64,000 nucleotides of DNA from positions 62,001 to 126,000 of the forward strand of contig JAHRHZ010000285.1 in assembly GCA_024137785.1 (NCBI GenBank), read 5' to 3'. The position numbers and the translations under genes are program-made. Positions 3,763 through 64,000 of this stretch are shown here, in pieces; positions within the stretch are counted from its first letter, which is position 1; the number at the start of each line of letters is the position of its first letter. A model generated the notes under the pieces. That model was not told the DNA's origin. It saw nothing but the letters and a program-made list of their open reading frames with translations, and did no database searches. This DNA is from Ginglymostoma cirratum (Eukaryota).

Positions 3763-4408
3763 GGTTTGTCAAAACATTACGGCAATATCGTCTTGTGCGC
3801 AAATCCATCGGATTTAACGTTGTTATTATCGCAGTTTGAGGTGAAAATTTTTCATGTGCCAATTACGTTACTTTTTTCAAGTATCAGCAACTGGTGAAAA
3901 TATTATCATTGGGGCCTTCTTGGAGAGACATGAAAAAAAGTAGAATCGTAATCAGGAAAATGTCTGTTATTTAAGAAAATCTAGCACGTATTTCGGAAGA
4001 GTATTTGGCTTCTGAGTAACTTCCTGAAAGTTTTGTTTCATGTAACTTTTTTTAATCATGTAGATTGGTGGTATTAAAGTGGTGATCAAGAAATTCAGAA
4101 CTGTTTATGTAAAGTGAAACACAACTGACTTATCTTGAAATGTGGAGCTAATAGAATGATGAGCTCAAGAGCAACAGACGTACGAACTTAGCCCAATGAT
4201 AGGAATCTGAAAGTAGCTGTTGCACGTTACTACTTTTAGTTTTAGAACAAAGCAAAGTTTTAGAGTTATACCCAGTAGTTCGTAGTCTGACTGCAGTTTC
4301 TCACGGTACATACAAATGTTATCGACCTTCGTGTGCAGGATGCAATTTTCAATTCTGCAGACGATAAGAGAATGGGAATTGTTAGTAACTGTGAGCAATA
4401 TAGAGTCG

Positions 4409-5040
4409 TGAAGGAGCCCCTAGCCACCACCCAGCCACAAACCCCTGTGACACTACACACAAACACGTAGTCAGGGTATCCTAGGGGTAGGATGGAAAAT
4501 GAAGACACCACCCAGTAACTAAAACTTAAAGACTGCTCCGTTCTGACTCAGAAGCCAGGACGTGACGTTTAGTAACCACAGGATAGGGAACTGTGGAAAC
4601 GTCTATGTTGAGACTGTTTAATTTAGGCTGAGTAGTAATGAGTTGAAATAATACATGACTAGGAACACGAAGTTGGGAAACTTTAGATTTATGATATAGT
4701 GCATATTGCTGTAATTGCAACCTGCCTTTCCCTAATCTGAGAAGTCACGTAGGATAGATAGCAAAAAGCTGGGGCTCGCAGTATCCGTACGCTGTTATCT
4801 TCTCCGCAATCCGCTTCAATTAATGTATGTATGGCTACCTAAGTAATGACCTTGCCTTGCTAAAGCACAGTACAATCGCAGTTTATTTTAACTTGTTTAA
4901 TCAGAGCCTCCCTGACCGTCCTGTGAGACGGTACTTTGGAGCTCTCTTTGTTGTAATCGATTGCAAGCTTGAATAAAGAAGTGCTACCACTGAAGCAAAT
5001 CCTCGTGGTGTGTCTTTTAGAGTTCTAAAAGATCCCCACA
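4409..5040 (+). repeat. ERV 5' LTR (632 bp)
   Basis: TGAAGG...CCCCACA; AATAAA at 4972-4977. Aligns end to end with 10957-11596 (about 12% differences by manual count). Confidence 0.95.
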
Positions 5041-5043
5041 GAT

Positions 5044-5061
5044 TGGCGTTGCGAGCAGGGT
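5044..5061 (+). promoter_or_regulatory. ERV primer-binding site, tRNA-Ser-like
   Basis: TGGCGTTGCGAGCAGGGT lies 3 nt after the LTR. It matches at 16/18 the complement of the vertebrate tRNA-Ser(TGA) 3' end (TGGCGCAGCGAGCAGGGT, recalled from memory). Confidence 0.75.
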
Positions 5062-5272
5062 GCTCCGTCTGAGTCCACCAAGGTGCATCGACTATTGGGA
5101 TGATTATGTTATTTTCCCACTCTGTTATCTTAGAATAGGCATATCTCTAGTATTGACTCTGTAAATCACGGCACCTGACCGAAATTCCTTAACCGTGGTC
5201 AGACCTGGAAGGACCTGACTGCCGGGTAGCCCCCGGGTAATAAGTGCACAGTAAGTTTATTAATATGGCAAT

Positions 5273-5530
5273 GGACTGACACTTGATAGACAAGAATAGA
5301 GGTTTTAAGACGTCGACGGACTGACCCTTAATAAGCAAGAATAGAGCTATTAAGTGGTAGACGGGCTGAAACTTAATAATTAGAAAAACAAATCCATTAA
5401 GAGGTCGTTGGACTGACCCTTAAAAGGCAATAACAGAGTAATTAAGAGGTCGACGTACTGAAACTCAATAATTAGGAACAGCCATTCAGAGGTCGACCGA
5501 CTGACCTTTAATAGGCAGGGAAAAGAGCTG
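5273..5530 (+). repeat. Tandem array of ~43-47 bp units in ERV leader
   Basis: Units begin at 5273, 5318, 5363, 5410, 5455 and 5498, with shared core TTAAGAGGTCGACGGACTGA(C/A)(C/A)CTTAATA. Confidence 0.85.
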
Positions 5531-6479
5531 GGCTAACGGATAAGCATAGGTAGACGGACTTACCTAACAACAGGTCATGGCTAATGGAGAGGAAGGATGG
5601 GGTCCCGGAGGATCCATCCTGCAAACAGTATTCATAAGTAACAAAGAGGGAGAGAGAGCGAGACCGATCTCTGTGCTCGCTCACTGAATCTTGTAGATGA
5701 GTTAACTCTTTGTGGTCTGGTTTGAATGCACCTTTGTTTGTTGATTGCTAAATGTTGTCTTGTGCAACTTGTGTGCTTTTGTTTCCTAGAACTCGAGATT
5801 TGGGGATGCTTTGAAATTAGTTTGCGTTTTGGGAATGTATGGTGATTTAAATGCGTGGTGTGCCTGTGTAAGTATGGGTTATGTATGGTTAATGAGATGT
5901 CTGTTTAAGAAACTCTCAGGGGTTGTGCAAAGCAAAAGTCTATAATGAAATGTTGATTTAAAAGGTTAGTTCGTAAAGCTTAGTAAAAATGTATCTTTTA
6001 GAATTGGCTCTGTATTGCTTTTGGACTTTGGGTCAATTTTAATTTCAAAAATTACCATGTTTGGAATTTCACTTACTGGCCAGAAATGAACTTCTAAAAA
6101 CTGTTATAACACATGAGTATGTATTTAACTCCGGATGATAAGATTTGCTCGTTGTAAAGGTACCATGATGTGGAAGTATGCAAGTAATAGGAAATTTAGA
6201 ATCTTGGGAATGCAATTCTCTTTGAACAAAATTCTGATATGTTCTAAAATCTGCAAAAAGCTGATAGATGATTAGAAAAGGCAAACTTAACAGAGGAGGT
6301 GGTTCAATACTAATTGAACCATTCTGCTTGACATGAGATAATGGATGCTTTCTCAGAAATTTCAAGTCCATGTATGATTGTATTTTACCGCGACTGAGTG
6401 AAGTAATCTGTAGACAGAGAACTGTAGGATTTAAAAAACACACAAATTGACAAAGTACTCAACTTGGCAACGAAAGCAG

Positions 6480-8591
6480 AAAATAACCAAGACAATGATG
6501 AGAAAAAAGCAGCCGTTGTTAGAGGGTGTGGGTGACGGGACTCAACCAGCTCCCCTCAGCCAACAGATTGAAATAAAAATTGCAGATTGTGTGATCAGTG
6601 CTTGTAAATGTGTGTGCAAAAATACTGAAGATAGCATATTAGAAATTGAGTTGTTGGAACAATTTGGAGCTGTGACCAACATGCAAGAAGCAAAGATTAA
6701 ATGGGATTGCCAGCTTAACTTTGGAACGTCAAGGATTGCATGCTTCCTTAAGTGTATCTGTGCAACAAAAATTGGGTGGGATTGACACCCCAAGAATCCC
6801 TCCTAGACATTAGCAATGATGTGCCCCAAATTATTGAAAGACGTGGAAATGCACAACCACCTAAAAGGCAGTACCATATCAGGCCTGAAGCTGTTAAGGC
6901 AGTTAAAGAAATTATGAAAGATTTCGAGAAACAAGGAGAGAGATGTGATTTTATCCCCATCTTTGGACCTGGAAGAAGAAAAACAGGGTCGAGGTAAGGA
7001 AGAGCCATCAGGGGGCCAGATGTGAAATGCATGTTTGTAGATGGGGCACGAAAATATTCCGATGGTGAGTCCAAAACAGGGTGGGCCGTTGTTAATTTGA
7101 AAGGGGAGCTTTTAACAGGAGGGAGGAGAGAATGATGTAAGGATACTTTCAGTGTAATCCATGACGATATGATGGCATGGGCAAGGTGAAGTTATGTTAC
7201 TTCGAATGGTGGTGTAATCCAGCATAAGAACCTAATCAAGGATCTAGTGGCTGCAGCTACTGAACCAAAAGAGGCAGCAGTAATAAAAGTAAAAGCGCAC
7301 CGTAAGGATGCAACCCCCGAACAGGCCGGAAATGTGGCTGCAGACGAGCACGCCAGAAAGATGCTCGAAAACCCGCAAATCAGCATCATGAAATTGGCCA
7401 AGATACCACACCCCTCGCGGACGATATACACAGCATAGCTGACATACACCAGACCATGACTACAGCAGGAAAACAGGAATGGACGCAATTAGCGGCACAA
7501 CCGGGTTGGACAGTGTTTGGAGAATACCTTAAAAAGACGAAAGTAAGGTTATAGCTCCCCGCTGCATCCAAAACATATTGTTAGGAGTCCATCATGGTAT
7601 AGCACAGAACAGCCGCGAGAAAATTTTGACCCAACTCCTAAAACACTGGTGGTGGCCAGGGATAGGAAGGGACACAGCTAAACACTGTGGGCGGTGTATC
7701 CAATCCGCCCAAACCGAACATGGAAAATCCTGTAAAATAAGAATGGGGTGACAGCACGACCGAAAGGTCCCTGGGTAAAAATGCAGATGGATTTCTAGGA
7801 CTGTTACCTCAGAGCTAGGGAAAACTATACTGCCTGGTAAAAATCGACTAATTCACAAGATGGGTAGAAGCCTACCCCACCCGGGACTGTACAGCTGAAA
7901 GTTTGGCCCACCTTTTAGCCACTGAAATAATATCCCGCTGGGACGTCCCTCAGCAATTGGACTCAGACCAGGGACCATATTTTACCGAGCAATGTATAAA
8001 AGAAATTTGTAAAATGTTGACTGATCGCTCAGAGATTCCACATACCCTACCATCCCGAGAGCTCAGGTTTAGTCGAAAGAACCAACCAAACCCTGAAACA
8101 CGCCCTTACTAAAACCTGCTAGGGCAAGAGTGATAGATGGACGATGGTATTACCAGCAATTCTGATGTCTATGAGGACATCAGCGGACCGGGTGACAGGA
8201 CTCACCCCTTTTGAATTAATGACAGAACGGGCTTTAAAACGGCCCCAAGATCTGATCACGGGAGGGGCAGAGTTAATGAATACTTAAAAAGATCTGTGGA
8301 AGTACATGAGAGAGTTATGGGACAACGTAGACAATGTTATAGAGCAAGCTGGTATTCGACAGCAAGTACGTAACTGGGAACTCCCAAGACTCCCAAGACA
8401 TGGCTACGCCTCCCATTAAACCAGGAGACCGGGTCCTGGTAAAGATCATCCGTGCCAAAGTAGCATTAACCCGTAAATGGTCAGGACCACATGAGGAAAT
8501 TATAACAGGGAGTATTGGAATCCTCGTAAATGAAGCTGGTATAGGGAAGTGGCACCACCCTTCGCAACTGAAAATGTATTATGGAAGCTAA
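6480..8591 (+). pseudogene. pol: ERV pol remnant: protease C-half, RT N-terminus only, partial RNase H, integrase
   Basis: PR-like DSIL.ELLEQFG; RT start PPKRQYHIRPEAVKAVKEIM; RNase H CMFVDG...GWAVV and VIKVKAH...GNVAADEHAR; IN HH..WWPG..C..C, QMDF, FTRWVEAYP, LDSDQG, YHPESSGLVER, GPY/F-like WSGPH...WHHPSQLK. Multiple stops and frameshifts. Confidence 0.9.
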
Positions 8592-8661
8592 ATTATAACC
8601 ATTGTATACTTTTTTGGGACAAGGCTTTGTATTCCCCCCATATTAACATTATATGTTACAG

Positions 8662-10940
8662 ATGCTTGAGCACCTTCCTATGGATCGTGACCGCCTTCGC
8701 CGTTACAGAGCTCCAATGTCACGGCAAGCGTCAACAAGCTGGTCACTGTATTGATAATAAAACCACCCGATAGGATACAGCCTCTGAATTCTACTTCTTG
8801 GGGCCCCAAGATGACTGTAGCGATGGTATCTTATGACTGCAGCCTACTGAAATTCTGGACCTAATTTGTGTCTCTGGACGACCACCACTCAGGTGCTGGG
8901 ACGGGACTAACTGTTATTATGAAGTGTTGAACTATGACTCTTTGACAGCTCGGAGCGGGGGAACAGTTTTGCGCATTTATCATAATGAGGATGGACATGT
9001 GCTCCTACTTCACGCAGACAGAACTTGGATTTATTGTACGATTTTATATAGACCTGACACTGGAACTCGGTAATGCTTTTATATGGAAAAATAAGACATG
9101 AGGCCAAGAGAAACCCGTATGGTTTAGTACTGACAGTAACAATTGTAGCCTCACGTGCTGGCAATGCGAGAGCCAGCAACCCCTCAGACATAGACGAACC
9201 CCAGACGACCCCGACGTAGTTGCAGGACACACACCTTCTACCCCTTAAGGAGTGGGAGAAGATCAACTACACCCAGACCACCCACCACATCACTATTACC
9301 AACAAAACCCCCCACATGTAGCGACACCCAGACACCGCTTAACACATCAATCATGTTACATCCTTGGGGCGTGCTTTTACAAACTCCCACATGGAAAAAT
9401 GTTGAACTTATTATCCAGCTCTTCCCACAGCTGCCCAGTACCCGCACTAAATCCATATCAGAAGCTTTTAAGCTCCTATTCACCGGGGCTGCCGATGGAT
9501 CGCCCCAGCTATGATTGAGAACCATTTACCGGTTTGTCAAGAGCCATTGGCACAAGCGAGACATTGTCACACAGGCAGAGGCTGGGGCAGCATTCAGAAT
9601 GGCAGCAGTGAATGCTGCAGGCGAATCCACTCTCCAGGAAGAAATCGACACCCTCAAGGCTAATCTAAAGATTTTGCTTCTCCAGAGTGGACATAACAAC
9701 TTGCAGACCACTAAATTGACTAAGCAAGCTAATGGCCTATTTTTGACGAGCCTCCAGATTGGAGTGAGAATAGAACAAACATTGAGTAAATTGATGGACA
9801 TCCTACAAAACCAAACCGAAGAGGTCAAGCATGCACCTATCTGCGCACTAACAGCAGCCAACTCCCTGACAACCTGGAGGCTTGGATTGGAAGCCCTCAC
9901 CAAGAACCAGTTATCTGAATGGATAGCCGATGACGACCTCCGAAACATGAGTATTAATGCCTTCCCTCACACTCGCGACCTCATTGAAGTATACACCCAC
10001 GCAGACCCAGAATGGGCTTCTCTCAATATGGGCCCTGGTGTACGATAATGTCACTCATCCAATCTATCAGACGCAGGATGTCGGACTCTACCAAAACATC
10101 ACAATTCATGAACTAGCCTCGAAACCTGAATATGTCACACAGGGAGATGGGATGTTCTACGCGGTAAACCTGAACTGGTGCACTAAATCAAAACACCTTC
10201 TTCTGTACTACCCTACAGGAATCGACGAAGAATGTGTGGCATACATCACTGGGACCTCTCTTGTCCTATGGTCCCGAACGATGCAGAATCCCAGTATGGA
10301 CAAGTTGGGGATCAGACTTATGTGACATCCATCAACATGACCTACTTTGTCGGAAACCGTCATTGCTCACTGCAAAACCACGCGGTTTCTCTTCACTAAC
10401 CTGACCAAAGAAATACGGATCGGGAACCATACTGTCAGACGGCCACCAAGGCAGGACATAACGTCTTTTGCAGCAAGCCTAAATCTCACCTGCTCAACCG
10501 GCATATTACAGCTGCCAGATGAGATGCCACCGGAGCTCCCCCGATCCACGAGAATCGGCAGCAGCTAATACAGGTCGAACAACACATCATTGAAGAGTTC
10601 TGCAAGCAGCAGAAGAAAGATGAACGCGACATCAACGAAACAAACAAGGTTCTCAGGCAGACGAATATATTTTTCCGCATTTGAAACTGGAGGATGAATG
10701 TCCAGGTGCACACTTGGATCTGGATTGCCTCACGTATGGCTGTCGTTGCACAGTGCCTCATACTCTTGATCTTATTGATCGACACTTGTTGCCTTAGAAG
10801 AATCCTACGTAAGCAAAGAAGATGTGAAGAAATGGAACCCCTCTTGAAACGATTCAAATACCCAAGACCGCAAGGGCACACTGCAATAGCACTCCAGGTG
10901 GTATCACACTATAAATGTCCCTTGGCACATGTGGCCATGG
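8662..10940 (+). pseudogene. env: ERV env remnant
   Basis: Splice-acceptor-like gttacAG at 8661 and signal-like LSTFLWIVTAFAV. Cleavage site (W/R)HKR|DIVTQAEAGAAFRMAAVNAA ends at 9559. It is followed by a heptad region, a Cys/N-glycan-rich segment, and TM anchor WIWIASRMAVVAQCLILLILLI then RRILRKQRR. Stops and frameshifts are present. Confidence 0.8.
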
Positions 10941-10943
10941 GCC

Positions 10944-10955
10944 GAAAGGGGGGAA
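10944..10955 (+). promoter_or_regulatory. ERV polypurine tract
   Basis: GAAAGGGGGGAA immediately before the 3' LTR TG at 10957. Confidence 0.9.
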
Positions 10956-10956
10956 C

Positions 10957-11596
10957 TGAAGAAACCTCTCGCCTCCACCCAGCCACAAACCACTATGACA
11001 CTACACACAAGCACGTAGTCAGGGTATCCTAGGAGGAGGATGGAAGATGAAGAAACCACCCCAGTAATTAAAACTTAAAGACTGCTCCGTTCTGACTTAG
11101 AACCCAGGCCTTGATGGTTAGGAACCACAGGATAGGGAATTGTGGAATACGTGTATGTTGAGACTGTTTAATTTAGGCTGAGTAGTAATGAGTTAAAATA
11201 ATACATGACTAGGAGCACGAAGTAGGGAAACTTTAGCTTTATGAGACAGTACATATCGCTGTAACTGCAACCTGGCTTTCCCTAGTCTGAGAAGTCACGG
11301 AGGATAGACAGCAAAAAGCTGGGGCTCAAGCATCTGTACACTCTTATCTTCACCACTTCCTCTTCAATTAATCTATGTCTGCTTGCCTAAGTAATGAACT
11401 TGCCTTGCTGAAACACAGTACAATTGCAGTTTGTTTTAATTTGTTTAATCAGAGCCCCCCTGACCGTTCTGTCAGACGGTGTCTTGGAGCTCTCCCTGCT
11501 GTAATCGGTTGCAAGCTTGAATAAAGAAGTGTTACCGCTGAAGCAAGACTCTGGTCCTCGTGGTGTGTCTTTTAGTGTTCAAAAAGACCCCCTACA
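10957..11596 (+). repeat. ERV 3' LTR (640 bp)
   Basis: TGAAGA...CCCTACA followed by TSD AGTCG; AATAAA 11520-11525. Confidence 0.95.
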
Positions 11597-12549
11597 AGTC
11601 GAATTTGAAAAAGCCATGGGCAAATCAGTGGAATAGTCAGAAGAGAGCCAATGCCATTTCAATCAGAAATGTGTGGATTAATACCTCTGGTGAGAAATGG
11701 AGCTCAAAAGACAGAACTGAAAAAAAAAAAGATGCAATTCTATAGAAGGTCCAAGAGCAAGCTGAGTACATAAGTTTAAGAATTATTGAAAGGAGCAGGA
11801 TACCTTAGGAACAACTATGTCTTGTCTCACTGGGATATCGGCTGGAAGTGAAGCCGCGTCATTCACGGACTTATCACAAAAAGTCATTCTTTTAATAATT
11901 ACGCTGAATTCCCAAGTTTACAATTCTTATAGGTCCAGGTTAACAACAAGTACTGTTCAGGTTTCCGTACTTAAAAGAACTTACAATTTATGACAGTATT
12001 TAGGCTCTAGTAACAGGTATACTGTCATAAACAGTTGACGCATTCGCTCTACTATTTAAAAGTGTCGGTCCGTTATCAGTTCGCCCTCAAACAACAACAC
12101 AAAATCAGACACAGACAGGGAGATCTTTACGAATGGAGGGGAAACTGGGAAAGCTGGCCAACATCTCTGTTCACAGGATATGCTGAGAGAGTGTCGTGAG
12201 TTTCAGAATTTTGGTGCTCAGTCTTCCTTTTCTGCATGCTTCAAACTGTTTGCAACACACACTGAGTGATTGGTTCAATGTAAAAGCACCGAGTAAGTAA
12301 AAGTGCAAGCTTATTGCAACTGCTCGGCAAAAATTGAAATCATTTTCTTCAGGCTGTTCAATCAGTCGGGAGTCACGTCAAGAGTTTTACAGAAAGTAAA
12401 CAAGGTAAACAGTTCAAAATCGCAAACAAGTTGGAGCTCGGTGTCCCCGTGTCTGCCAGGAAAGGGGAAATATTTGTGGCAACCGCACAGCATTTACAAT
12501 TGCCAGGGATGCCATCAGTATACTTATAAATGGCCAGAAATCAATTGAA

Positions 12550-45294: not shown

Positions 45295-48200
45295 TTTTCA
45301 GCGGCGGGAGTCCGGGAGGAGGCGCGAGGGCAGCGTGGGAAAGTAAGCTTTTCCTTGAAAACATACCTCGTGAATAGGCGAAGTGCACGCTGAGCAGGAG
45401 CGGATACGGGATGGCTGAGTAAGTGAGGTAATATACTTGGGCGGTTGCTTTACCCGAAACACTACAAAGGTTGTGTCTCCCACCCAGCCTCTTCCTCTAA
45501 ACAAGAAAGATTCTGGGCGCCGATTTGGTAAGTTACGAGTTTTTATTTTCCAATAGTCTGTTTTTGTGAATTCAGAACAATGGGAATGGATGTTAGGGCA
45601 TTTGCATGCTCCTGCTGTAGAATGTGGGAGGTAAGGGTCACCACTAGTGTCCCTGCTGACTTCCTCTACGGGAAGAGCACCCAACTCCAGCTCCTCAGAA
45701 ACCGCGTTAGGGAACTGGAGCTGGAGCTGGAGCTGGACGAATTTCGGATCATTCGGGAGGCTGAGGGAGTGATTGAGAGAAGTTACAGTTCGGTAGTCAC
45801 ACCTCAGGTACAGGAAAAAGGTAGATAGGTTACAGTCAGGGGACGGAAAGAGAAGAGGCAGACTGTGCAGGGATCCCCTTTGGACGTTCCCCTCAATAAC
45901 AAGTATACCATTTCGGATAATGTTGAGGGGGACGAATTACCAGGGGTAAGCCACGGGGTACAGGTCGCTGGCGCAGAGTCTGTCCCTGTTGCTCAGACGG
46001 GAAGAGGGGTGAGGGGCAGTGCATTAGTCATTGGGGACTCCATAGTTAGGGGGACAGATAGGAGATTCTGTGGGAATGAGAGATACTCGCAGTCGGTGTG
46101 TTGCCCCCCAGGAGTCAGGGTCGGTGATGTCTCGGATCGTATTTTCGGGATCCTTAAGGGGGACGGGGAGTAACCCCAAGTCGTGGTCCACACAGACACC
46201 AACGACATAGGTAGGAAAAGGGATGGGGATGTAAAGCAGAAATTCAAGGAGCTAGGGTGGAAGCTTAGAGCGAGAACAAGCAGAGTTGTTATCCCTGGTT
46301 TGTTACCCGTGCCACGTGCTGGCGAGGCGACGAATAGGGAGAGACAGCAGTTGAACACGTGACTTCAGGGATGGTGCAGGAGGGAGGGATTCAGATACCT
46401 GGATAATTTGGGCTCATTCTGGGGTAGGTGGGACCTCTACAGACTGAATGGTCTGCACCTGAACCAGAGGGGTACCAATATCCTGGGGGGAAATTTGCTA
46501 ATGCTCTTCCGGGGGGGTTTAAACTAATTCAGCAGGGAGATGGGAACCTGAATTGTAGCTCCAGTGTACAGGAGTTTGAGAGTAGTGAGGTCATGAATAA
46601 GGTTTCAAGGTCGCAGAAGTGTACTGGCAGGCAGGAAGATGGTTTGAAGTGTGTCTCATTCAATGCCAGGAGCATCCGGAATCAGGTGGGTGAACTTGCA
46701 TGGTTTGGTATCTGGGACTTCGATGTTGTGGCCATTTCGGAGACATGGATAGAGCAGGGACAGGAATGGTTGTTGCACGTTCCGGGGTTTAGATGTTTCA
46801 GTAAGATCAGGGAAGGTAGTAAAAGAGGGGGAGGTGTGACATTGTTAGTCAAGGATAATATTACGATGGTAGAAAGGACGTTTGATGAGAACTCGTCTAC
46901 TGTGGTAATATGGGCTGAGGTTAGAAACAGGAAAGGTGAGGTCACCCTGTTGGGACTTTCCTACAGGCCTCCGAATAGCTCCAGAGATGTAGAGGAAAGG
47001 ATAGCAAAGATGATTCTGGAGAGGAGCGAAAGTAACAGTGTAGTTGTTATGGGGAAGCTTTAACTCTCCAAATATTGACTGGGAAATCTATAGTTCGAGT
47101 ACTTTAGATGGGTCAGTTTTTGTCCAATGCGTGCAGGAGGGTTTCCTGACATCGTGTGCAGATAGGCCAACAAGAGGCGAGGCCACATTGGATTTGGTCC
47201 TGGGTAATGAACCAGGCCAGGTGTTGGATTTGGAGATAGCTGAGCACTTTGGTGATGGTGACCACAATTCGGTTACGTTTACTTTAGCAATGTTCAGGGA
47301 CAGGTATATACCGCAGGGCAAGATTTATAGCTGGGGAAAGGCAATTATGAGACGATTAGGCAAGACTTAGGATGCATAGGATGGGAAAAGGAACTGCAGG
47401 GGCTGGGCATAATTGAAATGTGGAGCTTGTTCAAGGAACAGATACTGCGTGTGCTTGATAAATATGTACCTGTCAGGCAGGGAGGAAGTGGTCGAGTGAG
47501 GGAACCGTCGTTTTCTAAAGAAGTTGAATCTCTTGTCAAGAGGAACAAGGAGGCTTATGTAAAGATAAGGCATGGAGGCTCAGTTAGGGCACTTCAGAGT
47601 TACAAGTTAGCCAGGAAGGACCTAAAGAGAGAGCTAAGAAGAGCCAGGAGGGTACATGAGAAAGGTAGGATCAAGGAAAACCCTAAAGCTTTCTATAGGT
47701 ATTTCAGGAATAAAAGAATGACTAGAGTAAGATTAGGGCCAGTCAAAGACAGTGGTGGGAAGTTGTGCATGGAGTCCGAAAAGATAGGAGAGGTGCTGAA
47801 TGAATGTTTTTCGTCAGTATTCACAAAGGAAAAAGGCAATGTTATCGAGCAGAATACTGAGATACAGAGTATTAGACTAGACGGGATTGAGTTTCATAAG
47901 GAAGAAGTGTGAGCAATTCTGGAAAGTGCGAAAATAGATAAGTCCCCTGGGCCGGATGGGATCAATCCTAGGAATGTCTGGGAAGCTAGGGAGGGGATTG
48001 CAGAGCCTTTGGCTTTGATCTTTATGTCGTCATTTCCTACAGGAATAGTGCCAGAAGACTGGAGGATAGCAAATGCTGGCTCCTTGTTCGAGAAGGGGAG
48101 TAGAGATAACCTTAGTAATTACAGACCAGTGAGTCTTACTTCGGTTGTGGGTAAAGTGTTGGAAAGGATTATAAGAGACAGGATTTATAATCATCTAGAA

Positions 48201-49492
48201 AGGAATAATTTGATTAGGGATAGTCAACACGGTTTTGTGAAGGGTAGGTCGCGCCTCACAAACCTTATTGAGTTCTTTGAGAAGGTGACTAAACAGGTGG
48301 ATGATGGTAAATCGATTGATGTGGTGTATATAGATTTCAGTAAAGCATTTGATAAAGTTCCCCATTGTAGACTATTGCAGAAAATTCAGAGGCATGGGAT
48401 TGAGGGTGATTTAATGGTTTGGATCGGAAATTGGCTAGCTGGAAGAAGACAGAGGGTGGTGATTGATGGGAAATGTTCATCCTGGAGTTCAGTTACTAGT
48501 GGTGTACCGCAAGGATCTGTTTTGGGGCCAGCATCGTTCGTCATTTTTATAAATGACCTGGATAAGGGCGTAGAAGGATGAGTTAGTAAATTTGCGGATG
48601 ACACTAAAGTTGGTACAGTTGTGGATAGTGCAGAAGGATGTTACAGATTACAGAGGGACATGGATAAGCTGCAGAGCTGGGATGAGAGGTGGCAAATGGC
48701 GTTTAATGCGGAAAAGTGTGAGGTGAAACGCTTTGGAAGGAGTAACAGTCATACAGAGTACTGGGCTAATTGTAAGATTCTTGGTAGTGTGGACGAGCAG
48801 ACAGATCTTGGTGTCCATGTGCATAGATCCCTGAAAGTTGCCACCCAGGTTGATAGGGTTGTTAAGAAGGCGTACGGTGTGTCAGGTTTTATTGGTAGAG
48901 GGATTGAGTTTCAGAGCTATGAGGTCATGTTGCAGCTGTACAAAACTCTGGTGTGGCCGCACTTGGAGTATTGCGTACAGTTCTGTTCGCCACATTATAG
49001 GAAGGATGTGAAAACATTGGAAAAGATGCAGAGGAGATTTACCAGAATGTTGCCTGGTATGAAGGGAAGGTCTTATGAGGAAAGGCTGAGGGACTTGAGG
49101 CTGTTTTAGTTAGAGAGAATAAGGTTAAGAGGTGACTTAATAGAGACGTACAAGATGATCAGAGGACTGGATAGGGTGGACAGTGAGAGCCTTTTTCCTC
49201 GGATGGCGATGGCTCGCATGAAGGGACATAGCTTTAAATTGATGGGAGATAGATATAGGACAGATGTCAGAGGTCGATTCTTCACTCAGAGAGTAGTAAG
49301 GGCGTGGAATGCCCTGCCTGCAACAATAGTAGACTCCCCAACTTTAAGGGCATTTAAATGGTCATTGGATAATTATATGGATGATAATGGAATAGTGTAG
49401 GTTAGATGGGCTTCAGATTGGTTTCACAGGCCAGCGCAACATCAAGGGCTGAAGGGCCTATACTGCGCTGTAATGGTCTATGTTCTATGATC
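45295..49492 (+). mobile_element. Near full-length CR1 (HER1-like) LINE; ORF1 (Zn finger/leucine zipper + SGNH esterase) ~45580-46528, ORF2 (APE + RT) ~46590-49400; inactivated
   Basis: ORF1 CSCCRMWEV...LRNRVRELELEL, VIGDSIVRG, DGLHL-like. ORF2 [44 protein letters not shown]. Tail TCTATGTTCTATG. Several stops and frameshifts (e.g. 45826, 47910, 48579, 49107). Confidence 0.95.
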
Positions 49493-55810: not shown

Positions 55811-57202
55811 GGACTGGAGATAGATGTGTGATTGTAGGAGAGGGGCAACTGCTGAGGCCTGTGTTTGAAGACGGAGACTATACAGATGAAATCACTGTAA
55901 TTAGGGAAGCTTTCATGGATCACTGGAGGTGTGAGGAGATCTGTGGGAGATGTAGAGAATCCAAAAATTTCCTAATTATTGAGGGGGCTGTGTAATGAAC
56001 CACTTCTAATATCAATGAATCAGATTTATTGATTCAGATTTAATCCGTCATACATTTATTTCTGGCATTAATTGTATCCTTTTTGTTCCAGCCAATATTG
56101 TCACTCTACTGACAATTCGACTCAGGAATTGTGGCCTCGCCCAGAGCACCACAATGTACCTAATATCAATGACCACAAGTGATCTCCTGGTCCTCGTTTT
56201 TCACGCCCTTGTCAATTGAATTTTAAGCTGTCGCTTTCCACAGCTATTTGATTGTTACACCTTAGCCTGTCGCCTCAACACCATTACAACGGCTGTGGTG
56301 ATCGATTTTTCTGTCTGGTTAACAGTATCTTTCACTTTCGACCTATTCATATCCATCTGTTTCCAGAGTCTCAGAAGAAGCTACTGTACTCCGAAGTCCG
56401 CAGCTCTGGTCATCGGGGTGATTTACTTTGTCAGTAATGTGAGAAACATTCCCTATTACTTCAGCAATATCCCGTTCCACGTGCACAATAATGCGCAGAT
56501 CGGCTGCAAGGCCAATCCCAGCATTGACACAGCTCCTGCCTGGAGAGCCTTTTACTGGGTCCAAGTGGTTTTAACTCCTTTGGCTCCCTATGTCGCTGTG
56601 GCTTTATTGAATCTCCTGATGGTGAGACACATACTCATTGCAAGCCGGGTCTGTCGAGGATTCCGAGGATATGGTGGTGGATCGCAGGACCCTGAGATGC
56701 AAAGTCGGCGAAGAGCCCTCGTTTTCCCTTTTGCCGCCTCAGCGAGTTTCATATTGCTGTGGATGCCCATGGTGGGACTGCTCATGTTCTCACGTATCAC
56801 TGAAACCTATACTTATCGCAGCTTTCATGAGCCATTTGCAATTGTCAATGAAACCCTCAAGATGCTCAGTGTTCTGAACTGGAGCACCACCATCTGCATG
56901 TACGCTCTTACTCAATCTAAATTCAGGGCAGAGCTGAGCACGGCAGTGCGAAAGTTTACCAGACGATTTGGTAAATTAGCTACAGTGTAAAATTGAGCAA
57001 ATTGTAGCCTCTCATCCTGTTTATAAAATCCCCATGAAATAATTGGATACATGTAAACTAATTTTGTGCAGCAAGGTGCGCTGCAGATTACCTCTTCATT
57101 GTTGAAATCTGTCAATACCGCTCCTTCGTTGTTGTAAGGCATCTATGAAAACATTAATGCAGCACCAAGATAGTTAATCACAAATAACATAGCATTTTCA
57201 AT

Positions 57203-61385: not shown

Positions 61386-64000
61386 ATAGAACATAGAACA
61401 TAGAACATTACAGTGCAGTACAGGCCCTTCGGACCTCGATATTGCACTGACCTGTGAAACCAATCTGAAGCCCATCTAAACTACACTATTCCATTGTCAT
61501 ATGTTTCTTTATCCAATGACCATTTAAATGCCCTTAAAGTTGGGGAGTCTACTACTGTTTCAGGCAAGGCATTCCACGCCTTTACTACTCTCTGAGTAAA
61601 GAAGCTACCTCTGACATCTGTCCTATATCGATCACTCCTCAATTTAAAGCGATGTCCTCTCGTGCTAACCATCACCATTCGAGAAAGAAGGCTCTCACTA
61701 TCCACCCGATATAATGCTCTCATCATCTGGATTGTCTCTATTAAGTCACCTCTTAACCTTCTTCTCTCTAACGAAAACAGCCTCAAGTCCCTCAGCCTTT
61801 CCTCATAAGACCTTCCGTCCGTACCAGGCAAAATCCTGGTAAATCTCCTCTGTACCCTTTCCAATGCTTCCACATCCTTCCTATAATGCAGCGAACAGAA
61901 CTGTACGCAATACTCCAAGTGCGGCCGCACCAGAGATTTGTACAGCTGCAACATGACCTCATGGCTCCGAAACGCAATCCCTCTACCAATAAAACCTGAC
62001 ACACCGTATGCCTTCTTAATAACCCTATCAACCTGGGTGGCAACTTTCAGGGATCTATGCACATGGACACCAAGATCTGTCTGCTCGTCCACACTACCAA
62101 GAATCTTACAATTAGCCCAGTACTCTGTATTCCTGTTACTCCTTCCAAAGTGTTTCACCTCACACTTTTCCACATTAAACTCCATTTGCCGCCTCTCAGC
62201 CCAGCTCTGCGGCTTATCTACGTCTCTCTGTAACATCCAACATTCTTCCGCACTATCCACAACTCCACCGACTTTAGTGTCATCCGCAAATTTATTAACC
62301 GATCCTTCTATGCTCTCATTCAGGTCATTTATAAAAATGACGAACAGCAGTGGACCCAGAACAGATCCTTGCGGTCCACCACTAACAACTGAACTCCAGG
62401 ATGAACATTTCCCATCAACCACCACCCTCTGTCTTTTTATAGCTAGCCAATTTCTGATCTAAACCGCTAAATCACCCTCAATCCCATGCCTCCATATTTT
62501 CTGCAATAGCCTACCATATGGAACCTTATCAAATGCTTCACTGAAATCCATATACACTAAATCAACCGCTTTACCCTCATCCACCTGTTTGGTCACCTTC
62601 TCAAAGAACTCAATAAGCTTTATGAGGCACGACCTACCCTTCACGAAACCGTGTTGACTATCTCTAATCAAATTATTCCTTTCTAGATGATTATAAATCC
62701 TATCGCTAATAATCCTCCCAACACTTTACCCACAACCGAAATAAGGCTCATTGGTCTATCATTACCACTGTTGTCTCTACTCCCCTTCTTCAACAAGGAG
62801 CCAACATTTGCAATCCTCCAGTCTTCTGGCACTATTCCTGTCGACAATGATGACATAAAGATCAAAGCCAAAGGCTCTGCAATCTCCTCCCTAGCTTCCC
62901 AGAGAATCCTAGGATAGATCCCATCCGCCCCAGTGGACTTACTTACTCTCACACTTTCCAGAATTGCTAACACCTACTCTTTATGAAACTCAATCCCGTC
63001 AAATCTAATAGCCTGTATCTCAGTATTCTCCTCAACAACAATGTTATTTTCCTTTGTGAATATTGATGAAAAATATTCATTTTGTGCCGTTCCTATCTCT
63101 TCGGACTCCACGCACAATTTCCCACTTCTGTCCTTGACTGGCCCTAATATTACTCTAGTCATTCTTTTATTCCTGACATACCTACAGAAAGCTTTAGGGT
63201 TTTCCTTGATCCTACCTGCCAAAGACTTCTCGTGTCCCCTCCTGGCTCTTCTTAGCTCTCCCTTTAGGCCCTTCCTGTCTAACTTGTAACTTTCAAGCGC
63301 CCTAACTGATCCTTCACGCCTCATCTTTACATAAGCCTCCTTCTTCGTCCTGACAAGAGATTCAACTTCTGTAGTAAACCATGGTTCCCTCGCTCAACCA
63401 CTTCCTCCCTGCCTGACAGGTACATACTTACCAAGGACATGCAGTCGCTGTTCCTTGAACAAGCTCTTCTTTTCAAAGCCCCTGAAGTTTCCTTCCCCAT
63501 CCTACGCATCCGAAGTCTTGCCTCATCCCCTCATAATTGCCTTTCCACGAGCTATAGCTCTTGCCCTGCGGTAGATACCTATCCCTTTCCATCGCTAAAG
63601 TAAACGTAACTGAATTGTGGTCAGTATCAGCAAAGTGCTCACTTACCTCCAAGTCTAACACCTGGCCTGGTTCATTACCCAGTAACAAATCAAATGTGGC
63701 ATCGCCTCTTTTGGCCTATTTACATACTGTGTCGGGAAACCCTCCTGCACACATTGTACAAAAACTGATCCGTCTAAAGTACTCGAACTATAGCGTTCCC
63801 AGTCAATATTTGGAAAGTTAAAGCCCCCATAACAACTACCCTGTTACTTTCGCTCCTATCCAGAATCATCTTTGCTATCCTTTCCTCTACATCTCTGGAA
63901 CTTTTCGGAGGCCTATAGAAAACTCCCAACAGGGTGACCTCTCATTTCCTGTTTCTAACCTCAGCCCATACTACCTCAGTGGATGCGTCCTCATCAAACG
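61386..64000 (-). mobile_element. CR1 (HER1-like) LINE ORF2, same subfamily as 45295-49492, runs off window end
   Basis: Tail (ATAGAAC)3 at 61386-61407; 314-aa ORF 62425-61481 with [12 protein letters not shown]; endonuclease YRPP near 63910; inserted into the Gypsy integrase. Confidence 0.95.

Follow-up and report, generated by a model that had tools for sequence, protein, structure and literature searches.

The window, that is, the whole stretch of 64,000 nucleotides analysed here, contains a provirus with both ends preserved and with remnants of gag, protease, pol and env lying between its LTRs (Table 1). Most of the element, namely the LTRs, the leader, the integrase and the env, derives from a retroviral family with four other copies, hereafter family A, while its central core derives from a second family, B. 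An intact env of the same Env family, located elsewhere in the genome on C263, is included in the table.

Table 1. Features of the provirus in the window and the intact env related to it
Feature	Position	Strand	Remarks
Left TSD, 5 bp, AGTCG	4404..4408	+	identical copy at 11597-11601
5' LTR, family A, TG..CA	4409..5040	+	polyA signal at 4972
PBS, tRNA-Ser(TGA)	5044..5061	+	17/18 bases match the genomic tRNA-Ser(TGA) 3' end
Inferred env leader exon site	5075..5105	+	start codon and splice donor lost in window copy
Six leader repeats, ~45 nt each (family D4)	5259..5513	+	
Family A gag start, as far as left junction	5577..5624	+	matches copy C140 to ~5631
Family B core: decayed gag/protease, RT stub, RT deletion, RNase H 5' part	5625..7280	+	
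RT stub, ~35 codons	~6830-6930	+	inside family B core
RNase H	7022..7438	+	contains right junction, ~7250-7300; Pfam RNase_H E 0.014
Integrase, broken, family A	7533..8591	+	Pfam Integrase_H2C2 E 8e-6, rve E 7e-6
env acceptor, signal-peptide half, SU	8660..9559	+	stops and frameshifts; acceptor kept in 5/5 copies
env TM: fusion peptide, heptad 1, Cys-rich beta core, heptad 2, membrane anchor	9560..10912	+	
PPT	10944..10955	+	
3' LTR, TG..CA	10957..11596	+	
Right TSD, AGTCG	11597..11601	+	pairs with 4404-4408
Intact env, 754 codons	G000:C263, L193:3496-5760		ORF of the same Env family

Structure of the provirus

The TSD, the TG..CA LTRs, the PPT and the tRNA-Ser PBS described in an earlier note on this DNA were all verified. 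The same note had proposed an old insertion on the basis of an LTR divergence of about 12%, and the measured value agrees with this (71 of the 630 aligned sites, 11.3%; K2P 0.123); 61 of 589 sites differ when only non-CpG positions are considered. The 5' LTR is 82-89% identical to the LTRs of other family A copies, and exact 5-bp TSDs were also observed at the C127 provirus and at four of eight other family LTR loci. The class III-type features named in the note, a 5-bp TSD and a Ser primer, are supported. The integrase claimed earlier is present and clusters with family A in the integrase tree, and the retroviral RNase H is recognisable, though weakly. The family A Gag is heavily decayed, and the window env changes frame at least four times in its TM region, which also contains one stop. 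The window provirus is a genuine, but dead, patchwork retrovirus copy.

An ATG followed by a GT donor is found at the same place, in a phase that matches the env acceptor, in both of the other leader-bearing copies, and thus in two of the three leaders overall. No in-frame Met was found upstream of the env acceptor in the stretches printed for the five copies. We infer that the env mRNA was probably spliced from a short leader exon near the PBS, in which the signal peptide would begin.

The envelope family and its predicted fold

The TM of about 450 codons lacking CX6CC and the Env peptides quoted in the earlier note are present, the peptides lying in alternating frames. The earlier note had placed the WHKR word a single change away from a furin site; decay private to this copy is not indicated, since the window's non-canonical first residue is common to four of the five copies. 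A full furin word occurs at the cleavage site in none of the five family A copies. A profile built from 132 Env rows outside family A matches window positions 9353-10819 (E 2.7e-31), so that the SU strands from ~9353 also fall within the family profile. The genome harbours a large Env family, whose named relatives in the databases come exclusively from sharks; seven of the eight relatives looked up bear shark names. Together with the placement of a pol relative described below, these names give indirect support for a probable shark host.

A TLV_coat match, which had been named beforehand as evidence against a non-gamma Env, does not occur in the in-frame sister TM, and neither does a GP2-like match; gamma-type envs of relatives do match. 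Among the 141 Env rows none matched a Pfam Env family, Fusion_gly included, and Baculo_F was recorded on one shark homologue at E 0.0011, below the cut-off. Neither the window TM frame nor the in-frame sister TM gave a match in word-index protein searches, and PDB sequence and profile searches with Env found no fusion protein. One of nine HMMER matches, a repetitive protein of 6,839 aa (P0124), was set aside as a likely chance match. The entries listed in full-text searches included no published account of the Env family or of the C263 gene, although work on gene co-option or on cartilaginous-fish foamy ERVs may cover part of the subject.

Structure searches were performed with two Env models, both weak (pLDDT 65.0 and pTM 0.35; pLDDT 54.5 and pTM 0.42; TM-scores of at most 0.25). 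With the intact-member model as query, the 41 PDB rows listed by Foldseek were without exception foamy Env (3) or paramyxo/pneumovirus F (38), the best foamy Env match having E 1.1e-5 and prob 0.98. A VIA search of 48,161 chains with the same model also placed foamy Env first (Z 7.0, 130 residues, 3.8 A), below the VIA threshold of 8 and above unrelated rows at 5.6, followed by measles F, NDV F, hPIV3 F and a coronavirus spike. The aligned range, 201-445, covers an SU strand, the helices and a TM strand at Z 6-7 in a low-confidence monomer. Neighbours of the Env TM part in the ESM Atlas were Baculo_F and Fusion_gly clusters (0.86-0.89), which were taken as leads only.

The model of a family A copy gave weak, mixed matches in one structure search, with chuvirus glycoproteins first and F0 fragments next, and only helical bundles in VIA, which are uninformative on the beta core. 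The fold assignment for the window therefore runs via family homology, where P0001 is 20% identical to the intact C263 protein (E 1.3e-6) and the longest env frame of the window gives no significant match to it (E 0.77). The F-like, non-gamma reading of the Env proposed earlier holds because both structure searches rank foamy Env and paramyxo/pneumovirus F as the closest matches of the low-confidence intact-member model. The predicted product of the window env is thus a class Ib fusogen resembling foamy Env and paramyxovirus F, in which the SU strands would remain in the fusion core after cleavage, as they do in F.

An intact envelope gene on C263

The C263 ORF encodes a signal peptide, a furin site, a fusion peptide and an anchor, and has neither an immunosuppressive domain nor CX6CC. 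The 3.5 kb upstream of it contains no integrase, and no LTR pair was detected; Ns make up about one-sixth of the surrounding 128 kb and occupy part of the first 10 kb on the upstream side. A fasciclin-domain gene is a neighbour of the env. The env and its flanks are present in two other species (organisms B and C), with no listed indel within the ORF. Against organism C the env differs at 178 of 2,122 bases (8.4%), and three flanking pieces differ by 14-18%. Eight of 14 interspecies changes are synonymous against an expected fraction of 0.22-0.27, as judged from the 40 of 350 difference rows listed. The protein is ~20% identical to other members of the Env family and forms a long branch in the tree. 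Its exact sequence is absent from the protein collection and the Atlas; the best Atlas match of the whole protein, a lead only, is an 874-aa chordate cluster (0.82) as long as zebra finch Ovex1 ORF3. A look-up gave no RNA record that holds the gene, and one polyA run from the same species placed almost no reads on the ORF; neither result speaks for or against expression.

The lack of indels in two other species and the lower conservation of the flanks single out the C263 env as an F-type candidate for domestication. It is likely a host gene that purifying selection maintains, and its product would most plausibly act as a cell-fusion or receptor-blocking membrane protein. The ORF might instead be a neutral relic spared by chance, in keeping with slow shark evolution and with neutral simulations, 11% of which leave an ORF free of stops over the organism A-B distance. 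It might also belong to a young provirus of which the remaining genes fall in unreadable stretches, as the N-containing upstream flank would permit. Either origin appears rather unlikely in view of the 8% divergence in organism C without an indel over ~2 kb between faster-changing flanks, the missing integrase and LTR pair, and the distance from other family members. If domesticated, the C263 gene would encode a protein with a syncytin-like or antiviral role whose fold class lies outside syncytin screens. The gene also offers a natural unbroken member of the Env family for structure work.

Composition and affinities of the element

A sliding comparison showed that the provirus passes from family A to family B at ~5625 and back to A at ~7250-7300. 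In every 200-bp step over 5609-7208, 18-20 of 20 family B loci match the window and the family A loci do not. The RT of the window provirus is deleted except for its first ~35 codons, and the stub directly adjoins RNase H in family B loci as well, so that the deletion is common to family B. The earlier note had mentioned neither this deletion, nor the chimeric make-up, nor the intact C263 env. Family B has dozens of copies (85 matches). In a survey of 20 of its loci, covering 9.9 kb per locus and revealing LTRs different from those of family A, the core was accompanied by a gamma-type TM in seven, an F-like env in three and neither in ten.

The window element is likely a recombinant of two tRNA-Ser-primed shark retroviruses related to snakehead retrovirus (SnRV; class III). 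An RT-less family B genome would have shared a particle with a family A helper genome, and reverse transcription would have switched templates twice, near the gag start and within RNase H, thereby placing A's LTRs, integrase and env around the B core, with RT provided in trans. Both junctions fall within stretches of A/B homology, which, together with the many family B copies available as donors, would also suit a transfer of the B segment after integration by ectopic gene conversion or deletion-repair. We regard such a transfer as unlikely, since the same core is found with a third LTR/env set at three other loci, which fits repeated cassette exchange in particles. Moreover, the B segment is about as diverged from its relatives (~80% identity) as the A parts are (~82%), and the junction event is therefore old.

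Relationships of the polymerase were examined with quick trees, in which a 159-residue RT piece from a sister copy represented family A and no named reference virus was included because a viral-contig scan yielded no RT references. The family A RT falls outside the gamma/epsilon clade, and a grouping with gamma/epsilon ERVs, which the earlier note had named, for the integrase, as contradicting its reading, was rejected (AU test, p-AU 7.4e-5). It forms a separate clade adjoining the one nearest to SnRV, SnRV itself not being in the tree, and one pol relative groups with a protein from Mustelus. Judged by eye against the alignment in PMC7947760, the RT carries SnRV-type motifs and not loki or foamy-like ones: family A and SnRV share the words L-P-x-G-F and P-x-V-A, where most loki RTs shown have words of the P-F-G and W-P-M type. 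Hand counts over ~130 columns gave identities of ~44% to SnRV, 39% to HERV-L and 38% to Loki-Pfl, and motif inspection revealed no loki RT among the 120 RT relatives listed. These motifs and the rejection of class I suggest that the family A pol is SnRV-related class III. Of the earlier proposal of a deep-branching lineage in a cartilaginous fish, the non-gamma class III part stands, and its depth and novelty were overstated because cartilaginous fish were already known to carry SnRV-related ERVs (PMC4422223); for the backbone, the lokiretrovirus link finds no support, given the SnRV-type RT motifs.

That the element is an endogenous foamy or foamy-like virus is quite improbable, even though such a virus would be expected to carry an F-like Env, foamy Env is the top fold match and foamy RT the best PDB sequence match of the family RT (E 2.5e-16 against 4e-14 for MLV), the PDB sequence matches listed containing no SnRV-type RT. 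Foamy viruses have a Lys primer and a 4-bp TSD, against the Ser primer and 5-bp TSD here; the RT motifs are unlike those of foamy and fish foamy-like RTs, and the env reaches the PPT and runs to the LTR without an accessory region. The Gag of a close pol relative contains a zinc knuckle, a feature missing from spumaviruses (PMC2717909). A lokiretrovirus, the first in cartilaginous fish given its absence from all six chondrichthyan genomes surveyed, is hardly credible: lokiretroviral Env is F-like (PMC7947760) and a loki TM shares cysteine spacing and an H-N-V-G word with the family TM by eye, but the RT words, the hand-counted identities and the RT relatives all argue against it.

F-type envelopes have been described in foamy viruses and lokiretroviruses, with orthoretroviral Env treated as a separate class (PMC11468914). 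In the present analysis the F-type env occurs on two SnRV-related pol clades whose union into a single clade is rejected (p-AU 2e-5), with gamma-type envs on sister pol genes, which suggests that it is old in retroviruses and has been exchanged repeatedly. We consider it probable that the window element is a dead, RT-less SnRV-related recombinant with a class Ib env and that its intact C263 relative is a host gene. The wider picture, in which a large, old shark SnRV-related group with foamy/F-type envs swapped entire LTR-env cassettes, gamma-type ones too, on an RT-less core and one env was domesticated, is favoured by a narrower margin of confidence.

SnRV proper has an Arg primer and 3' accessory ORFs, while the window element has a Ser(TGA) primer, no such ORFs and a deleted RT. 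The SnRV env signal peptide was reportedly described by Hart in 1996 as starting upstream of gag, an arrangement that family A probably shares. The RT motif type, by eye, and the aquatic host range are common to family A, SnRV and the SnRV-related ERVs (clade Huo, PMC6001957; CmiERV lineage I, PMC4422223).

The family Env resembles foamy Env and paramyxo-pneumovirus F (class I shared-core subclass, PMC11468914) in its predicted SU+TM domain III core, long TM, Cys-rich beta region and two heptads; identity in the aligned cores is 7-15% and the N-terminal SU part differs. Unlike foamy viruses, it has a cleavable-type signal peptide, no foamy leader peptide and a non-foamy pol. Lokiretroviruses (PMC7947760), characterised by an RT clade that is sister to the remaining retroviruses and by an integrase near CGIN1, likewise combine an F-like Env with an LTR retrovirus and show similar TM motifs by eye, but family A has SnRV-type RT motifs, an SU of ~300 residues and no smc-like gene that could be seen. 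Gamma-type Env has a short TM with an immunosuppressive domain and CX6CC, in contrast to the family TM of 454 residues. Avian Ovex1 ORF3 (PMC2717909) also lacks both motifs, as does C263, with no kinship implied.

A 2026 screen for chondrichthyan syncytins (bioRxiv 10.64898/2026.05.06.723177) used syncytin queries, required both gamma-type motifs and reported no captured env in placental sharks; such a design would be blind to the C263 env. That screen could see gamma-type envelopes only; the C263 gene makes fusogen capture in sharks testable. Like the captured envs known as syncytins, percomORF and the chondrichthyan syncytin-like genes, the C263 gene is an intact ORF with orthologues and no provirus found around it, and it differs from the syncytin type in lacking the two motifs and in its predicted F-type fold.

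Structure and probable recombinant origin of the provirus

The window holds, at 4404..11601, a dead recombinant provirus: an endogenous retrovirus (ERV) of a kind already known, carrying an unusual class of envelope. The outline proposed in the earlier note, with TG..CA LTRs, a 5-bp target site duplication and a Ser primer site, was borne out by AGTCG on both sides and by a primer site identical to the same-genome tRNA-Ser(TGA) at 17 of 18 bases; 5-base duplications were also found at one sister provirus and at four of the eight other LTR loci of the family. Remnants of the integrase and RNase H, also claimed earlier, were recovered. The RT is reduced to about 35 codons with the RNase H directly after it, a loss that the earlier note does not mention. 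The transmembrane (TM) subunit extends over about 450 codons from 9560, interrupted by one stop and no fewer than four changes of frame; CX6CC is absent, as had been noted. The word preceding the fusion peptide had been placed one C>T change from a canonical furin site; a full furin site is present in none of the five family A copies (defined below), and the first residue of the window's word is common to four of them. Since the codons of this word are CpG-prone, the window copy is uninformative on the original state of the site.

Features of the window and of the locus carrying the intact envelope gene
Feature	Location	Strand	Remarks
5' LTR	window 4409-5040		TG..CA, AGTCG outside
3' LTR	window 10957-11596		TG..CA, AGTCG outside
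LINE endonuclease and RT remnants	window 46428-48578	+	
LINE endonuclease and RT remnants	window 61484-62458	-	
Rhodopsin-family GPCR	window 56220-56987	+	open 256-codon stretch; Pfam 7tm_1, E 4e-9
Intact env (C263 env)	G000:C263:30444496-30446760 (L193:3496-5760)	+	764-codon open frame, 754-residue predicted protein
Two fasciclin-domain exons	L231:8429-8707, L232:4697-4978	-	~32-38 kb downstream of C263 env

A genome search with the TM frame identified four close sister loci (72-80% amino-acid identity), which together with the window provirus constitute family A. The sisters match the window at ~82% across the LTRs, leader, integrase and env, leaving 5625-7250 unmatched. This segment is sequence of a separate ERV family, family B, which has 85 matches in the genome; 20 of these loci were fetched with a span of 9.9 kb, and 18-20 of the 20 match at every 200-bp step from 5609 to 7208. 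The RT deletion is common to the family B loci, as is the Ser primer where seen. Within the 9.9 kb, a gamma-type TM was found in seven of the 20 and an F-like env with other LTRs in three, the remaining ten having neither. The RT-deleted, Ser-primed core of these loci (L035-L054) is common to at least three LTR/env sets, namely the gamma-type, the F-like and that of the window; L101 is apparently an RT-bearing relative.

The A/B junctions lie just past the gag start and within RNase H, and the two families are homologous at both places. The simplest reading is that two template switches occurred between co-packaged family A and B genomes; an old gene conversion that brought in the B segment instead is less likely. 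Under template switching, RT would have been supplied in trans to the RT-less recombinant genome.

Between the two window LTRs, 71 of 630 aligned sites are different (K2P 0.123; 61 of 589 non-CpG sites), in agreement with the ancient insertion suggested earlier. Its age would be about 280 My if the shark rate assumed in PMC4422223 (2.2e-10 per site per year) holds, and about 60 My at an assumed 1e-9. The LTRs of separate family A copies differ by 10-15% from one another, as much as the window's own pair, which points to a single old burst of expansion.

Polymerase lineage and envelope leader

The sister copy C127, flanked by family A LTRs, retains the N-terminal part of RT. Quick ML trees (136 and 33 RT rows) place this RT among shark and teleost elements and outside the gamma/epsilon clade; a constraint placing family A RT inside that clade was rejected (p-AU 7.4e-5). 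The window integrase falls with family A, and one pol relative shares a cluster with a Mustelus protein. The RT and integrase trees contain no named virus, and RT motifs were instead compared by eye with the alignment in the PMC7947760 supplement. Family A RT carries the words of snakehead retrovirus (SnRV) without those of lokiretroviruses or fish foamy-like elements, and hand-counted identity to these aligned sequences is about 44% for SnRV, 39% for HERV-L and 38% for Loki-Pfl. The lokiretrovirus link drawn in the earlier note is thus not supported for the backbone. The same source records lokiretroviruses in none of six chondrichthyan genomes; SnRV-related ERVs, designated clade Huo (PMC6001957), were already known in the elephant shark (PMC4422223).

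A splice acceptor directly precedes half a signal peptide in all five family A copies. The two other copies that have a leader carry an ATG and a donor close to the primer site, in phase with the acceptor; neither signal survives in the window copy. In SnRV, the env start and signal peptide reportedly lie in a leader exon upstream of gag. An env signal peptide begun in a leader exon, with splicing predicted from sequence, is suggested as a further SnRV-like trait of family A. The portion of PMC12193657 available makes no statement on this SnRV trait.

Predicted envelope fold and probable exchange among backbones

Three genome searches for env gave 41, 135 and 123 matches, which are overlapping pieces and not copy numbers; a profile from 132 rows, with family A left out, recovers the window env at E 2.7e-31. 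The family A TM model, built from an in-frame copy with X at four stops, is poor (pLDDT 65, pTM 0.35) and gave weak matches to chuvirus glycoproteins, paramyxovirus F0 fragments and walleye-virus Envs. For the intact C263 env, modelled with 140 family rows (pLDDT 54.5, pTM 0.42), all 41 Foldseek PDB matches listed are foamy Env or paramyxo/pneumovirus F, the best being foamy Env (E 1.1e-5), and feline foamy Env ranks second in BFVD (E 3e-5). The five best of 48,161 chains in VIA-align were foamy Env (Z 7.0, 130 residues, 3.8 A), measles F, NDV F, hPIV3 F and a coronavirus spike, followed by short helical matches (Z 5.6), and a second run agrees. The match covers an SU strand together with the TM helices; a shared SU-TM core separates foamy Env, F and spike from orthoretroviral Env (PMC11468914), and this core is also predicted in the present Env family. 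Features from the ESM Atlas point the same way as both structure programs, and the F-like nature of the Env, proposed earlier, is supported at modest scores. Envs of the walleye dermal sarcoma and epidermal hyperplasia viruses are also among the BFVD fold neighbours (E 1e-3 to 0.1), which hints at a possible F-type Env in epsilonretroviruses. The present Env family is without mention in the available parts of PMC4977317, PMC13524379 and PMC12583693.

Elements with F-like env occur on two pol clades, the joining of which was rejected (p-AU 2e-5), and the RT-bearing relatives of family A carry a gamma-type env in nine of the ten loci fetched; both envelope classes therefore appear to have been swapped among these backbones. 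These relatives (L083, L085, L087, L089, L091, L093, L095, L097, L099/L100) form a younger family whose RT shares about 55% identity with that of family A; some frames are long (881-aa pol, 486-aa env). In further F-like-env proviruses (L196-L212), RT and integrase fall in a different clade, which also contains SnRV-like proteins of coelacanth, frog and turtle.

An intact F-like envelope gene

The C263 env is predicted to encode a signal peptide, furin site, fusion peptide, two heptads and an anchor, and has an acceptor-like sequence immediately 5'. No integrase or LTR pair was found adjoining it, and the only RT remnants in the readable part of the surrounding 128 kb (about one-sixth reads N) lie far off, at 25 kb and 57 kb. 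Contigs of a second species (organism B) span the gene and its flanks at 2.4-3.6% difference, and a contig of a third (organism C) covers ~2 kb of the ORF with a difference of 8.4%, compared with 14-18% for three pieces of flanking sequence; no indels within the ORF are listed in any run. Eight of the 14 listed interspecies ORF changes (40 of 350 difference rows shown) are synonymous, against an expected 0.22-0.27, which fits purifying selection, short of a full dN/dS test. The gene is a candidate domesticated F-type env, with the fasciclin-domain exons usable as a synteny anchor.

Seven of the eight Env relatives looked up are from Heptranchias, Scyliorhinus (two), Pristiophorus, Heterodontus (two) and Chiloscyllium, which, with the Mustelus clustering of a pol relative, makes a shark host probable. 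One annotated host transcript model, Heterodontus fbxo15 isoform X3 (P0128), ends with sequence from the TM subunit of this Env family, by either exonisation or annotation artefact.

Beyond the element itself, the main points of interest are the C263 candidate and the apparent exchange of cassettes across envelope classes. In a 2026 screen that covered 36 chondrichthyan species (bioRxiv 10.64898/2026.05.06.723177), the queries were syncytins and hits needed both an immunosuppressive domain and CX6-7C(C); the C263 env could not have been reported by it. Precedents for captured non-gamma env are provided by Ovex1 ORF3 (PMC2717909) and co-opted gecko foamy sequences (PMC6669660).
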